From contig NZ_CP076562.1 of the NCBI RefSeq assembly GCF_022174665.1, positions 1 to 64,000 of the forward strand: DNA of 64,000 nt. The letters are read 5' to 3'. This document shows, in pieces, positions 16,071-35,050 of the stretch. A model generated the notes under the pieces. The model searched no databases and had not been told where the DNA came from. It saw only the letters and a program-made list of their open reading frames with translations. This DNA is from Eubacterium sp. MSJ-33 (GTDB lineage Bacteria; Bacillota; Clostridia; Lachnospirales; Lachnospiraceae). Both the position numbers and the translations under genes were made by a program. How positions within the stretch are numbered: position 1 is the stretch's first letter; each line of letters begins with the position of its first letter.

Positions 16071-16100
16071 AGATTTTTATTCTGTAGTAGGTAATGGATT

Positions 16101-16259
16101 ATGATAATGGAAAATGATGAATTTGTAATTCCAGAACAGTATCGGAAAATGTCCGTTACTGAATTAGATGCAGAAGCAAATAAAATGTTAAAAGAGATAC
16201 AACAAGGGAAACGAATAATTCGAGATAAGAAAAAAGCTGCACAGGGAAGAATGAAATAG
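16101..16259 (+). CDS. hypothetical small protein (52 aa), doubtful
   Basis: ORF MIMENDEFVIPEQYRKMSVTELDAEANKMLKEIQQGKRIIRDKKKAAQGRMK between cls and a terminator; weak RBS. Confidence 0.2.
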   Translation: MIMENDEFVIPEQYRKMSVTELDAEANKMLKEIQQGKRIIRDKKKAAQGRMK

Positions 16260-16310
16260 TTTTCTATGTTGAGTAGCAATAGTTACAGAATTTAATATAT
16301 GTATTAAAGA

Positions 16311-16347
16311 TAACTCCTTGAAGTTTTGTACGACTTCAGGGAGTTTT
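16311..16347 (+). terminator. rho-independent terminator
   Basis: aactccttgaagt / acttcagggagtt stem then ttttttg. Confidence 0.5.
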
Positions 16348-16383
16348 TTTGTATTCTTAAAGAAAAAACAGGAGGATACATAC

Positions 16384-16980
16384 ATGCAATATGGATACAT
16401 CCGGGTCTCGGCGACAGATCAGAATTTGGACAGGCAGTTGATTGCGTTAAAGAACGCAGGCGTGGAAACAAAGCGGATATTTGTAGATAAATTATCGGGG
16501 AAAGATTTTAATCGTCCCAATTATAAAAGGCTGATAAAGCGATTAAAGCGTGGCGATCTGTTGTACATAGTGAGTATTGATCGGTTGGGGCGGAATTACA
16601 CGGAGATTCAGGAACAATGGAGAATGCTGATTCATGATAAACAGGTGGATATCTGTGTGTTGGATATGCCGCTCTTAGATACGCGAAACAAGAAAGACCT
16701 GATGGGAACCTTTGTTGCAGAGCTGGTATTGCAGATACTTTCATTTGTTGCGGAAAATGAGAGAGCGAATATACGGAAAAGGCAGGCGGAAGGGATTGCA
16801 GCGGCAAAAGCGAGAGGTGTGCAGTTTGGCAGACCTAAAATCGTACTTCCGGATGATTTTGTGGATATTGTATATGCATGGAAACGACAGGAATTGACGT
16901 TGAATGATATTCTACAAAGGTATCCTATCAGCAGGACGACGTTCTACCGGCGGGCGAAAGAGTATATGGGGACAAAATAA
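16384..16980 (+). CDS. serine recombinase (resolvase/DNA invertase, Hin/Gin/Pin-like), left edge of AT-rich island
   Basis: [18 protein letters not shown] catalytic Ser motif, C-terminal HTH; strong RBS acaggagga. Confidence 0.85.
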
Positions 16981-16982
16981 AA

Positions 16983-16998
16983 GTGCCATAAAGTATAC
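16983..16998. repeat. 16-bp repeat GTGCCATAAAGTATAC, centred on GTATAC within a 20-bp near-palindrome
   Basis: ccataaagtatactttttgg is 18/20 self-complementary; direct repeat of 17128-17143. Confidence 0.4.
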
Positions 16999-33302: not shown

Positions 33303-33307
33303 TTATA

Positions 33308-33808
33308 ATGGTTCAGGCAAAAAAACAGTTTCTTGATGAAGTAGAAAAACTTCATGAAAGAAATGAACTATCCAAGAAAGTAGAAGCAACATATTTTGAA
33401 CCGGGAATGATGGAGTATCTGGAACAATCAGAAGGTATATATGAAGAGGGTACAGGGAATGTTATTCTTCGTTTTGAAGTTATGGGAACACGTTATGATG
33501 GTCGGACAGAGCAGATTGAAAAGTTAAAACCGGGGGACTTGATACAAATAGTCAGAGAAAAAGAAAATCCTTACAACTCTAATAATTTTACTTTGCTGAC
33601 AAAACGAGGACAAAATGTGGGGAATATGCCGGCTAATTTATGTAACGCGATTGCACCATTGTATGATGAAGGAAATTTAAAAATCATGGATGCCTCTGTT
33701 AGCTATGTGGAACCTATTTCCAAGAGAAATCGTCATGCCAAGCAAGCTATCTTATTTGTGGAATTAAAGGCAAAACTGAATTCCGCCCTGAATTCCGCCC
33801 CATGCTAG
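33308..33808 (+). CDS. HIRAN domain protein
   Basis: FEVMGTRYDGRTEQIEKLKPGDLIQIVREKENPYNSNNFTLLTKRGQNVGNMPANLCNAIAPLYDEG matches HIRAN (3'-DNA-end binding) pattern; C-terminal 12-bp tandem duplication ctgaattccgcc x2 (LNSALNSA). Confidence 0.55.
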   Translation: MVQAKKQFLDEVEKLHERNELSKKVEATYFEPGMMEYLEQSEGIYEEGTGNVILRFEVMGTRYDGRTEQIEKLKPGDLIQIVREKENPYNSNNFTLLTKRGQNVGNMPANLCNAIAPLYDEGNLKIMDASVSYVEPISKRNRHAKQAILFVELKAKLNSALNSAPC

Positions 33809-33839
33809 CAAATCTTTTTATTTTATGATATGCTAGCAT
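33802..33839. promoter_or_regulatory. operator-like pair of TGCTAGCA palindromes spaced ~20 bp
   Basis: aTGCTAGCAaatctttttattttatgataTGCTAGCAt overlapping stop of HIRAN gene, 27 bp upstream of HipA-like start. Confidence 0.4.
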
Positions 33840-33865
33840 TATCAAAATGAAAGGGCGGACGTAGT

Positions 33866-35002
33866 GTGGGATATATCTTAAAATTATTCGATACAGATCT
33901 TTTGAAGTTTGATGTGATTGAGAACTTGGCAGATCCTGTACTTAAGATAACATGGATGGATGAATCGCGGAAGGCACTGTTTCCACTTGGAATGGAAGTG
34001 TCAGACGACGGAATTGCAAGTTTTATTCGGCATCGTTGTATACCGAAGAACCGGGCATATGTGAATGCGTTTCTGGCAAAAAATGGACTTAGTGCAAATC
34101 GCCCTATGGATGTGATTACGGTATGTAAAGGCCTTTCTCTGAATGATTCGTATTGGATTACAGAAGAGGATTCGGTGCAGAGTTTTGCATCCAGCAACCT
34201 GTACGAGAATCGTTTCAGTCGTTTGCTTGCGTGGACGGCATTTACCGGATATGGCAGTAGTGTGCGGGCAACGTTTTTATCTTCACCGGAATTTACGACG
34301 AATGGTATGCTGCCGAAATGCTGGCGCAGAATGGAGAATAAAATATATCTCTATAAAGGAGCGACTTCCGGTGCAGCCAATACTGGAATGGAACCGTATT
34401 CCGAATTGTATGCGTATGAGATTGGTGCGCATGCCGGATTTTCGGTAATCCCTTATAAAATAAGCGTATGGAAGGGAAATGTATGCTCTGTATGTGAGCT
34501 TTTTACAAGCAAAGATCTGGCATATGTTCCGGCTGGGTATATTATAAAAAAAGGTGGCATGGACGCTGTCCGTAAGTTTTATGGAACATTAGGTGCAGAA
34601 TTTGTGGATGCGTTGGATGAGATGTTGGTATTTGATGCGATTGTCTGCAATACAGATCGCCATTTCGGAAACTTTGGCGTGCTTGTGGACAGTCACACAA
34701 ATCAGATTGCAGCACCGGCGCCATTGTTTGATCATGGCAATGCACTTTTTAATTTGGCGGGTGAAGAAAACTGGGAGAATGAGAACATATTGCAGGCGTA
34801 TATAGACACGTTATTTCCTTGTGTCTATGATGATTTTATGGAGGAAGCGAAGCGTGTGTTGAAACCATCAATTCGGGAAAAGGTAAAAAAGCTTTTAACA
34901 TTCGAAGTGAAAAAGATGGGAAGAACGAATTATGACAGTAAAAAATTGAAGCTTATGACAAAGATTATTCAGAAGCGCGCAAGAGCACTTTTGGAATCAT
35001 AA
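33866..35002 (+). CDS. HipA-like Ser/Thr kinase domain protein (no adjacent HipB-type HTH gene)
   Basis: HipA_C motifs VFDAIVCNTDRHFGNFGVL and APLFDHGNAL; GTG start. Confidence 0.6.
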   Translation: MGYILKLFDTDLLKFDVIENLADPVLKITWMDESRKALFPLGMEVSDDGIASFIRHRCIPKNRAYVNAFLAKNGLSANRPMDVITVCKGLSLNDSYWITEEDSVQSFASSNLYENRFSRLLAWTAFTGYGSSVRATFLSSPEFTTNGMLPKCWRRMENKIYLYKGATSGAANTGMEPYSELYAYEIGAHAGFSVIPYKISVWKGNVCSVCELFTSKDLAYVPAGYIIKKGGMDAVRKFYGTLGAEFVDALDEMLVFDAIVCNTDRHFGNFGVLVDSHTNQIAAPAPLFDHGNALFNLAGEENWENENILQAYIDTLFPCVYDDFMEEAKRVLKPSIREKVKKLLTFEVKKMGRTNYDSKKLKLMTKIIQKRARALLES

Positions 35003-35010
35003 TGAAAAAT

Positions 35011-35050
35011 GACTCTCTGGAATCATAAATGATTTCAGAGAGTTTTTTAT
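35011..35050 (+). terminator. rho-independent terminator, right edge of island
   Basis: gactctctggaatcat / atgatttcagagagtt stem + ttttttat. Confidence 0.5.

Follow-up and report, generated by a model that had tools for sequence, protein, structure and literature searches.

The DNA analysed here is a stretch of 64,000 nucleotides (the window) at positions 1 to 64,000 of contig NZ_CP076562.1 of the bacterium Eubacterium sp. MSJ-33 (a Coprococcus-like member of the Lachnospiraceae; assembly GCF_022174665.1). All coordinates are those of the window, and L-numbers are labels of comparison loci, genomes and contigs. Between genes for ThrRS and a PLD-type cardiolipin synthase (cls) upstream and a His_kinase/HATPase sensor with an AraC-type response regulator (the yesM/yesN two-component genes) downstream lies an accessory island, which is likely a mosaic in which a small serine invertase flips a 139-bp promoter cassette that gates defence-like cargo. 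In a 1-kb composition profile the GC content was ~0.42-0.50 before 16 kb and past 35 kb and 0.31-0.37 at 20-34 kb. The flanks have GC contents of 0.462 (left, 1-16079) and 0.443 (right, 35061-64000), compared with 0.401, 0.339 and 0.349 for the first (17166-21527), second (21562-27318) and third (27354-33808) cargo modules, confirming the AT-rich block that the initial annotation had placed between cls and yesM. Twelve co-directional genes form an unbroken series of open reading frames (ORFs) on the + strand at 16384-35002, 11 of them downstream of the recombinase gene. Their intergenic gaps are mostly 2-57 bp, with larger gaps of 185 bp (16981-17165, holding the switch), 171 bp (23995-24165) and 196 bp (28452-28647, containing a 24-codon gene stub). 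The initial annotation had counted 13 co-directional genes with gaps of 2-60 bp; the present count is twelve plus a 51-codon ORF, and the spacing holds apart from these three gaps.

The 51-codon ORF (16104-16259, + strand) lies outside the insertion and is also found, with an in-frame stop, at the empty site of Coprococcus hominis CLA-AA-H212 (L001), as well as in Logan contigs L081-L083. Likewise part of the flank is a terminator-like hairpin at 16312-16345 (+; 14-bp stem plus a T run), which is orthologous to the single hairpin of the empty site. Since neither feature belongs to the inserted DNA, the true left edge of the island is at ~16350 and not at 16080, where it had first been drawn; the right edge is at ~35060. 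A second terminator-like hairpin (35011-35044, +) is the sole strong + strand terminator past the promoter described below, and the two strong hairpins bound the series of genes. By a hand count from their alignment, the two hairpins are ~65% similar.

The first island gene (16384-16980, +; true ATG at 16384) encodes a small serine recombinase of 198 amino acids (aa), composed of a catalytic domain and a C-terminal helix-turn-helix (HTH) and lacking the large C-terminal domain of serine integrases. It matched the Pfam Resolvase family (1.3e-30; 106.9 bits vs a cut-off of 23.3) and the 'DNA invertase' family of PHROG (6.5e-55), showed a weak Mpi-family match in NCBIfam, and contains a YIRVSATDQ motif on direct reading of the sequence. 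Among PDB entries it matched Sin/Bin3 (6.6e-31), gamma-delta resolvase (5.8e-23) and Gin (4e-18). The Hin/Gin type given in the first description of this protein does not fit: the sequence is nearer to Sin/Bin3 and gamma-delta resolvase, and no part of the gene is included in the 139-bp segment, whereas the Hin/Gin/Cin/Pin subfamily is characterised by an invertase gene within the invertible segment and a Fis-bound enhancer within that gene. Judged by its sequence, the 198-aa recombinase is a DNA invertase and not an integrase.

Downstream of the gene are two recombination sites, the left at 16986-17005 (CCATAAAGTATAC/GTATACTTTTTGG, core GTATAC at 16993-16998) and the right at 17131-17150 (CCATTAAGTATAC/GTATACATTATGA, core at 17138-17143). 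Each is an imperfect palindrome, the two are inverted relative to each other, and they have the GTATAC core in common, with the cores 145 bp apart. A site-motif scan of the 64-kb window gave five matches, of which four, including all three exact ones, were the half-sites of this pair; no third site was found at the island ends or elsewhere in the window. The 139-bp segment between the cores (16999-17137) contains a sigma-70-like promoter, TTGATA-17-TAGAAT with a TG extension (17083-17111, +), which agrees with the consensus at 10 of 12 positions and was the top match within 16000-17500. In the window this predicted promoter faces the cargo and is aimed at the first cargo gene (ATG at 17166), and we call this orientation ON on the strength of the consensus match.

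BLAST comparison of relatives with the window returned a 163-bp stretch (16987-17149) that was aligned in reverse in L004 and L007. Junction sequences were then extracted from 11 loci; together with the alignments they showed the two sites (left, GTGCCATAAAGTATAC abutting TTTTTGGTAT; right, GTGCCATTAAGTATAC abutting ATTATGAAAA) and revealed that the between-core segment is reverse-complemented in L004, L006, L007 and L085-L088. For L004, L007 and L085-L088, identity to the window segment was 0.92-0.94 when inverted vs 0.60-0.65 when direct, while in L084 the segment is direct with an identity of 0.94. The core of the left site was the crossover point in every inverted or excised variant, and the promoter was retained in the inverted copies. 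Thus, both orientations occur between near-identical sequences with the crossover at the core, as in L085, which carries window-like cargo (96% over 10.6 kb) behind a segment of the opposite orientation. In L089 and L078 the between-core segment has been precisely excised. In L183 (NCBI GCA_977049275.1), L184 and L188 the segment faces the cargo, and these alleles are locked ON because the recombinase gene has been lost, down to its last 77 nt, and the left site is degenerate. Natural ON, OFF, excised and locked-ON alleles of the switch therefore exist.

Most of this evidence compares different assemblies, and the existence of degenerate, locked alleles would also fit a history in which the orientation differences are old rearrangements fixed between species and the switch is dead in the present genome. 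Such a history appears very improbable, since the invertase ORF of the window is intact, both of its sites have a perfect core, and flanks that are 96% identical carry opposite orientations. Moreover, single-sample assemblies break exactly at both cores. Contigs with an identical recombinase from two unrelated sequencing runs end 20 nt past its stop codon, at 17000, the last base common to both orientations; in one of these runs, SRR9969848, a 21.8-kb contig starts at the right core (17136), 30 nt before the first cargo gene. A de Bruijn assembler breaks contigs in this manner when both paths are present. A single contig from SRR9969852 (L186) has the ON right junction, reverse-complemented, at its beginning and the OFF right junction at its end, and therefore k-mers of both states are present in that run.

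The arrangement extends to more distant recombinases. Scanning metagenomes with the window recombinase yielded 80 loci, and 56 relatives at 55-67% identity were examined. Inverted-repeat pairs, reported when they had at most 2 mismatches in 14 nt, accompanied 52 of the 56; they mostly begin 15-55 bp past the stop codon and span ~110-180 bp, and their site resembles TATCAAAAGGTGTACCTTTTGA. A + strand ORF starts 130-310 bp past the recombinase stop in most of 43 loci checked. Sigma-70 matches of at least 10/12 were present in 20 of 29 distinct related segments, compared with 14% of shuffles, and promoter matches faced the recombinase in 17 cases and the cargo in 7. One distant group contains both orientations at 98-99% identity (L092/L093 vs L094/L095). 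The cargo of the relatives is largely of the classical phase-variable kind and consists mostly of surface proteins (SHIRT, Ig-like (Big_3), SLH, LRR_5, pilin-tip VWA adhesins, subtilase), and elsewhere of polysaccharide-synthesis enzymes or a conjugative coupling protein. Behind two of the relatives lie genes of a kind found in the window: L104 has a gene for a Zn-ribbon-TPR-TIR protein with an SPFH gene after it, and L136 has genes for an SPFH protein and a membrane protein. As a separate observation, a type IV secretion coupling protein is encoded 1-2 genes downstream of the recombinase and repeat-flanked segment in L123, L137, L139, L144, L145 and L155.

Promoter invertons themselves are well known. 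Salmonella Hin acts on the fljBA promoter, and hin lies inside the ~1-kb segment. The Mpi recombinase of Bacteroides fragilis acts on capsule promoters (PMC11761130). The window locus resembles both in its small serine recombinase, in short inverted sites that form imperfect palindromes around a core, and in a sigma-70-type promoter within the flipped segment that would exert ON/OFF control over a co-directional operon. It differs from Hin in that the invertase gene lies outside the segment, from Gin in the closer relationship of the enzyme to resolvases already described, and from Mpi, a master invertase for many distant promoters, in that the window invertase appears dedicated to the neighbouring switch. 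It also differs from Hin and Mpi in its cargo, which encodes TIR, HEPN and HipA-type proteins rather than flagellin or capsule functions. A term search of inverton surveys found no discussion of defence cargo. The window locus is a dedicated serine-invertase promoter switch placed before a stack of defence-like cassettes.

The history of the island was examined by scanning one genome per species with the cls protein, which identified seven close relatives, all of them Lachnospiraceae from the gut, with a protein identity of 95-98%. In C. hominis (L001) the site is empty, with 16279 joined to 35061 and ~150 bp between them, and seven close genomes hold different cargo between the same flanks. 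L004, L007, L084 and L088 have 16384-19936 in common with the window and continue with other TIR genes, a GNAT gene and further genes; L003 and L005 have a GNAT-methyltransferase gene and the HipA-like kinase described below; L086 and L087 carry recombinase, switch, WYL regulator, 806-aa, 1050-aa and SPASM genes without SPFH or TIR; and L181 differs again in carrying a DUF1351-RNase_T gene together with a GNAT gene. The island is therefore accessory and strain-variable, as the initial annotation had proposed. Each cassette is swapped out or missing in some close relative. The island is a stack of cassettes and not one unit; two of the cassettes recur independently in other genomes, and by sequence comparison the locus is a recombination-prone hotspot with cassette turnover instead of a single mobile unit.

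These comparisons bear on whether the serine recombinase serves as an integrase/excisionase that mobilises the whole 19-kb block, in line with the initial view that it 'leads' the island as a mobility gene. The recombinase does sit at the island edge and is missing from the empty site, the hairpins at the two ends are alike, and mobilisation of defence genes by small serine recombinases has been postulated (PMC13552941). We nevertheless consider such a role very unlikely. The enzyme is of the resolvase/invertase type, its sites were found in the window only as the downstream pair, and among the relatives recombinase and switch occur with different cargo and cargo occurs without the recombinase, which shows that the parts of the block do not travel together. 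The detectable substrate of the enzyme is the adjoining promoter cassette. The site is vacant in close relatives and the island deviates in composition, as expected of an integrative island, but no tRNA gene was found at the island, domain and profile searches of the island proteins identified no tyrosine or large serine integrase and no transposase, and apart from the two hairpins the island ends have no likeness or att-like repeats. The island proteins had no matches to phage structural or replication families, which upholds the earlier judgement that the island is neither a prophage nor an insertion sequence. Searches of the island DNA against plasmid and phage collections were likewise negative, and scans of viral contigs gave no match for the SPFH protein and one peripheral match for the alpha-CTD protein described below.

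Several further rearrangements were observed around the switch. In L006 (13402-13560 of that locus) a deletion extends from within the invertible segment to the middle of a TIR gene, and an inserted DUF1016-like gene of 356 aa separates cls from the recombinase. The cargo also differs within 13 bp of the GTATAC core: the window has ATTATGAAAAAGG ahead of the gene for a ribbon-helix-helix (RHH) protein, and L086 has TTTTTGAAAAATG ahead of the gene for the WYL regulator. Cassettes may thus be replaced at the recombination site itself (L086/L087 vs window 17138-17165). The difference in cargo right at the crossover core (window and L004 vs L086) is also a hint, belonging to the speculative proposal given near the end, that the invertase might exchange cassettes much as an integron does.

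The first cassette begins with an Arc/CopG-type RHH protein of 63 aa (17166-17357, +; Pfam Arc 0.0033, below the cut-off; PHROG 'CopG-like repressor' 1.4e-5). It is followed by a 622-aa SPFH (Band_7_1) protein (17378-19246, +) with five N-terminal and three C-terminal Zn-ribbon motifs and eight CxxC pairs. This protein has >8000 homologs, the 120 best of those listed being 69-98% identical to it. At the SPFH C-terminus, 18998-19234 consists of three tandem repeats of 84-90 bp (family D1), 76-83% identical, each encoding a Zn ribbon of the form WDCxCGxTGNxGxFCxNCG. Next come a 229-aa membrane protein (19249-19938, +) with hydrophobic segments within residues 5-124 and a coiled-coil tail, whose gene invariably lies behind the SPFH gene at the loci examined, and a 514-aa Zn-ribbon-TIR protein (19983-21527, +; TIR_2 9.1e-11). 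The latter has a transmembrane helix at 325-349 and a ~165-aa C-terminal domain that is predicted to be extracellular, and direct reading identified a WVKNEW motif, which corresponds to the W-x-x-x-E typical of NAD-cleaving TIRs. By analogy, we infer that the first cassette is a membrane-associated module with the TIR domain as its effector.

The order SPFH, ~231-aa protein and TIR recurs in the unrelated contexts L176-L179 (SPFH 73-76% identical), and recurrence of SPFH, membrane protein and TIR genes was also counted in L104 and L136. A small gene precedes SPFH in L176-L178, and the TIR protein of L176-L179 is often fused to DUF6273. Two side observations concern these loci. In L179 a coupling protein gene stands immediately before the cassette. 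In L176-L178 (~11327-11716 in locus coordinates) a gene for bAvd, an accessory protein of diversity-generating retroelements, lies immediately behind the SPFH / membrane protein / TIR-DUF6273 cassette, and the DUF6273 end of the TIR protein is possibly hypervariable there. PADLOC models gave no matches to the first-cassette proteins, and a literature search on SPFH proteins and defence islands found nothing. Like the TIR proteins of Thoeris and other anti-phage TIR systems, the window protein carries the conserved W-x-x-x-E, and it weakly matched the Thoeris III ThcB4 model (27 bits vs a cut-off of 220). Unlike them, it is anchored in the membrane, has a Zn ribbon and a presumably extracellular C-terminal domain, and is constantly accompanied by the SPFH protein and the small membrane protein, while the island lacks the ThsA-type effector (SIR2 or transmembrane, with SLOG/Macro) that accompanies ThsB.

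These properties raise the question of how far the influence of the switch extends. It could be real and yet regulate only the first cassette, which would be envelope-exposed and undergo surface phase variation to evade phage adsorption or host antibody, with the downstream cassettes using promoters of their own and having merely landed in the same hotspot. The membrane topology of the TIR protein is in keeping with this proposal, as are the prevalence of surface proteins downstream of related invertases, the continued linkage of the first cassette to the switch in L004, L007, L084, L085, L088 and L183-L185, the occurrence of the HEPN trio (see below) without a switch elsewhere, and the two long intergenic gaps. 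However, in L086 and L087 the switch lies directly before WYL, 806-aa, 1050-aa and SPASM genes, so it is not tied to one cassette, and the cassettes of the window follow one another with neither a strong + strand terminator nor a strong promoter between them. Restriction of the switch to the first cassette is accordingly a possibility that we take seriously while considering it somewhat unlikely, and we favour a promoter flip that acts on more of the cargo.

The second module comprises two genes. The first encodes an uncharacterised 810-aa protein (21562-23994, +), which contains a coiled coil and has no informative match beyond a weak one to an HTH at its C-terminus. The second encodes a 1050-aa protein (24166-27318, +) with the N-terminus MKIRTDFVTNSSSSSF, a beta-rich domain, a HIRAN fold at ~170-276 and DUF6273 at 479-631. 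The two genes are adjacent in L085-L087 and L181, and their pairing was seen only in close island variants. In L164 a 740-aa protein is encoded ahead of the HEPN trio; it was considered as a counterpart of the 810-aa protein and rejected for want of detectable kinship. In the AlphaFold model of the 1050-aa protein (pLDDT 80.8) the beta-rich domain follows the N-terminal peptide and has no clear structural relative. The MKIRTDFVTNSSSSSF peptide is invariant across a 60-member family whose remaining columns average 19% identity. The window contains two coding copies of the peptide, at 24166-24213 and in the stub at 28441-28488, which differ by five synonymous changes and one Asp to Glu; the mostly synonymous differences point to selection on the protein. 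Members of this family are frequently adjacent to a SPASM enzyme, and the serine run of the peptide may on this account be a modification target.

The third module starts with such an enzyme, a 365-aa SPASM-domain protein with a divergent radical-SAM-like core (27354-28451, +), which is 78% identical to the SPASM protein of L173. Its SPASM domain scored above the cut-off (28.2 vs 21.5 bits), whereas the Radical_SAM match fell below (17 vs 29.5 bits) and CX3CX2C is absent, with cysteines at 57, 65 and 72; of the rSAM/SPASM-like assignment made initially, the SPASM half was thus confirmed. The 24-codon ORF that follows (28441-28515, +; repeat D3) could be taken for a peptide precursor, an idea that was rejected because L173 and L174 carry an intact 290-aa gene there. 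These two loci have the order SPASM (358 aa), TNSSS-domain + HIRAN (290), HEPN_Swt1 (567), a protein with three RNA polymerase alpha C-terminal domains (alpha-CTDs; 970) and HIRAN (162), and the window has the same order at 27354-33808 with the second gene reduced to a stub. From this sequence comparison the 24-codon ORF is a remnant of a deleted TNSSS-domain + HIRAN gene.

The remaining three proteins of the module form a trio that also occurs alone in other contexts (L164-L168). The first is a 576-aa HEPN protein of the Swt1 type (28648-30378, +; HEPN_Swt1 84.9 bits vs a cut-off of 27.5) in which RNKVAH, at residue 98, fits the Rx4-6H signature of HEPN proteins and R98 and H103 are invariant among homologs. 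Its C-terminal region has an invariant DGNRR motif, the sole support for the ParB/DUF262-like domain in the initial annotation: no ParB or DUF262 match was obtained in Pfam up to E=5 or with a five-sequence profile against PDB. PDB sequence searches with the 810-aa, 1050-aa and HEPN proteins returned nothing significant. Swt1-type HEPN proteins fused to ParB-like domains have been described (Anantharaman et al., Biol Direct 2013, PMC3710099), and the window protein is similar to them in its intact Rx4H followed by a DUF262/ParB-like DGNRR region. It differs in that its ParB-like part was not confirmed by hidden Markov models and in that it has obligatory partners, the alpha-CTD/sigma4/winged-helix protein and the HIRAN protein; no mention of such partners turned up in term searches of PMC3710099, none of which was aimed at them.

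The second protein of the trio (972 aa; 30384-33302, +) contains three alpha-CTDs, a sigma-70 region 4 and a tandem winged-helix array. The alpha-CTDs are 41-42% identical to that of Bacillus subtilis RpoA. In the predicted model (pLDDT 84.5) nucleic-acid-binding modules occur throughout, the winged-helix array resembles those of UFL1 and SelB, and no enzymatic domain was detected. At least 490 homologs were found, and the 120 best listed cover 86-100% of the query at 51-61% identity, except for one ortholog at 95%. In the BREX protein PglW, too, winged helices come after an alpha-CTD-like domain in the C-terminal region (NAR 2026, PMC12839542), and the window protein resembles it in having alpha-CTD-like helix-hairpin-helix elements followed by several winged-helix modules. 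It differs in its three alpha-CTD copies and the added sigma region 4, and in that a kinase, a STAND-like ATPase and BREX genes are missing. Matches to MzaA (25 bits vs 800) and PglW (22 vs 990) were limited to sigma region 4 or the alpha-CTD and far from full-length. We suggest that the 972-aa protein acts as a sensor or scaffold and the HEPN protein as the effector. The last member of the trio is a 166-aa HIRAN-domain protein (33308-33808, +; HIRAN 9.9e-13). Its ORF opens at 33281, and a start at ATG 33308 is likely because the homologs (160-165 aa) begin 3-6 nt past the alpha-CTD gene.

The island ends with a 378-aa HipA-like Ser/Thr kinase (33866-35002, +), for which the HipA_C match is weak (6.8e-4) and CtkA gave E=0.008, in qualified agreement with its first description as HipA-like. 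In searches with PADLOC-DB v2.0.0 the kinase matched PDC-M03A (1.9e-17) and the HIRAN protein PDC-M03B (2.3e-11). Kinases of this kind, HipI, are paired with HipS-HIRAN antitoxins (HipN) in hipIN modules (Gerdes et al., mBio 2021, PMC8262856). The window resembles hipIN and PDC-M03 in that a HipA-family kinase adjoins a HIRAN-domain protein. The order of the genes is reversed, however, and the HIRAN protein covers only positions 121-227 of the 245 in the M03B profile, lacking the HipS-like half. The pairing of kinase and HIRAN protein is unproven because both genes occur separately elsewhere, the kinase in L003, L005 and L089, where the remainder of the island is missing, and the HIRAN gene as part of the trio in genomes without the kinase. 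The other 10 of the 12 island proteins had no PADLOC-DB match, save the weak one of the alpha-CTD protein to PglW. The matches to the candidate pair PDC-M03 are thus partial, and PADLOC recognised no complete system on an island described at the outset as packed with conflict-system-like genes; the conflict-type domains named there, TIR_2, SPFH (Band_7_1), HEPN_Swt1, HIRAN and the Zn ribbons, were themselves confirmed.

Two features outside the island were noted in the left flank. Full-length TwoAYGGAY RNA motifs (RF01731; 126 and 128 bits) occur at 4445-4610 (+) and 12609-12773 (-), inverted to each other and 8 kb apart, the second immediately upstream of thrS. Between them lies a second presence/absence block of 5 kb (7205-12219), which is absent in L001, L084, L086 and L087 and present in L004, L085 and L088.

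Taken together, the data suggest the following mechanism. The invertase, as the presumed catalyst, would recombine the two sites at the GTATAC core and thereby flip the promoter cassette. In the ON state of the window the promoter would point into the cargo and most likely drive at least the first cassette. It would probably also read through the later cassettes, as no strong + strand terminator was found before 35011, and the absence of terminators is consistent with co-transcription of the whole 18 kb. In the OFF state the promoter would point back into the invertase gene. The switch would thereby allow modules that are costly or self-toxic (TIR, HEPN, HipA-like kinase) to be expressed in just a minority of the cells of a clonal population. 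Domains and gene context suggest that the cargo functions in defence and acts against phages.

Several observations weigh against this interpretation. The promoter is known as a consensus match, and a weaker promoter-like site on the opposite strand (17055-17026, 9 of 12) could cause residual transcription in the OFF state. Promoters inside the cargo are conceivable in view of the two long gaps (171 and 196 bp) and of a weak promoter-like site at 19939-19966, and the HEPN / alpha-CTD / HIRAN trio is found elsewhere without any switch. The mixed junctions in the SRR9969848 and SRR9969852 metagenomes could reflect two co-resident strains instead of clonal switching. With respect to the cargo, no protein matches any validated defence system in PADLOC-DB, most invertase relatives adjoin genes for surface proteins and not for defence, and the conservation of the SPFH protein (69-80% identity among the non-orthologous homologs listed) is unusually high for a defence gene.

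A flipping promoter would give substance to an association that has already been reported. Andersen et al. (PLoS Biol 2026, PMC13552941) showed that anti-phage systems are marked by small serine recombinases (RADS), and the role of these enzymes beside anti-phage genes is called unknown (PMC13552941, PMC12529663), with mobilisation or inversion offered as postulates only (PMC13552941). The window locus has the same organisation in Bacillota, with the recombinase immediately upstream of and co-directional with defence-type genes, and its invertase is 38% identical to the RADS bait EF_B0058. It differs in the defined invertible promoter between recombinase and cargo; at the founding pTEF2 locus EF_B0058 lies 54 bp from a restriction gene, and no equivalent inverted-repeat cassette was seen there. 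A broader proposal, which we put forward as speculative and rather improbable, is that the small serine recombinases beside defence genes in Bacillota, or at least this subfamily, are dedicated ON/OFF switches through which one promoter gates unrelated immune cassettes. As part of the same proposal, two of the cassettes would represent new systems, one in which a TIR receptor anchored in the membrane cooperates with an SPFH scaffold, the other a HEPN / HIRAN module around a protein that displays three RpoA CTDs and sigma region 4. The RpoA CTD and sigma region 4 are surfaces of RNA polymerase to which phage takeover factors bind, and for this reason the 972-aa protein may be a decoy sensor for such factors.

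The locus offers a concrete mechanism, a promoter flip, for recombinases found beside anti-phage genes, and because ON, OFF, excised and locked-ON alleles all occur naturally in Lachnospiraceae of the human gut, the idea is testable with existing reads and strains. Two recurrent cassettes that PADLOC does not recognise have been delimited as candidates. If the proposed mechanism is true, the OFF state would be the one most often represented in assemblies, genome-derived defence repertoires would overstate what individual cells express, and self-toxic effectors such as TIR, HEPN and Hip kinase would be tolerated through bet-hedging.

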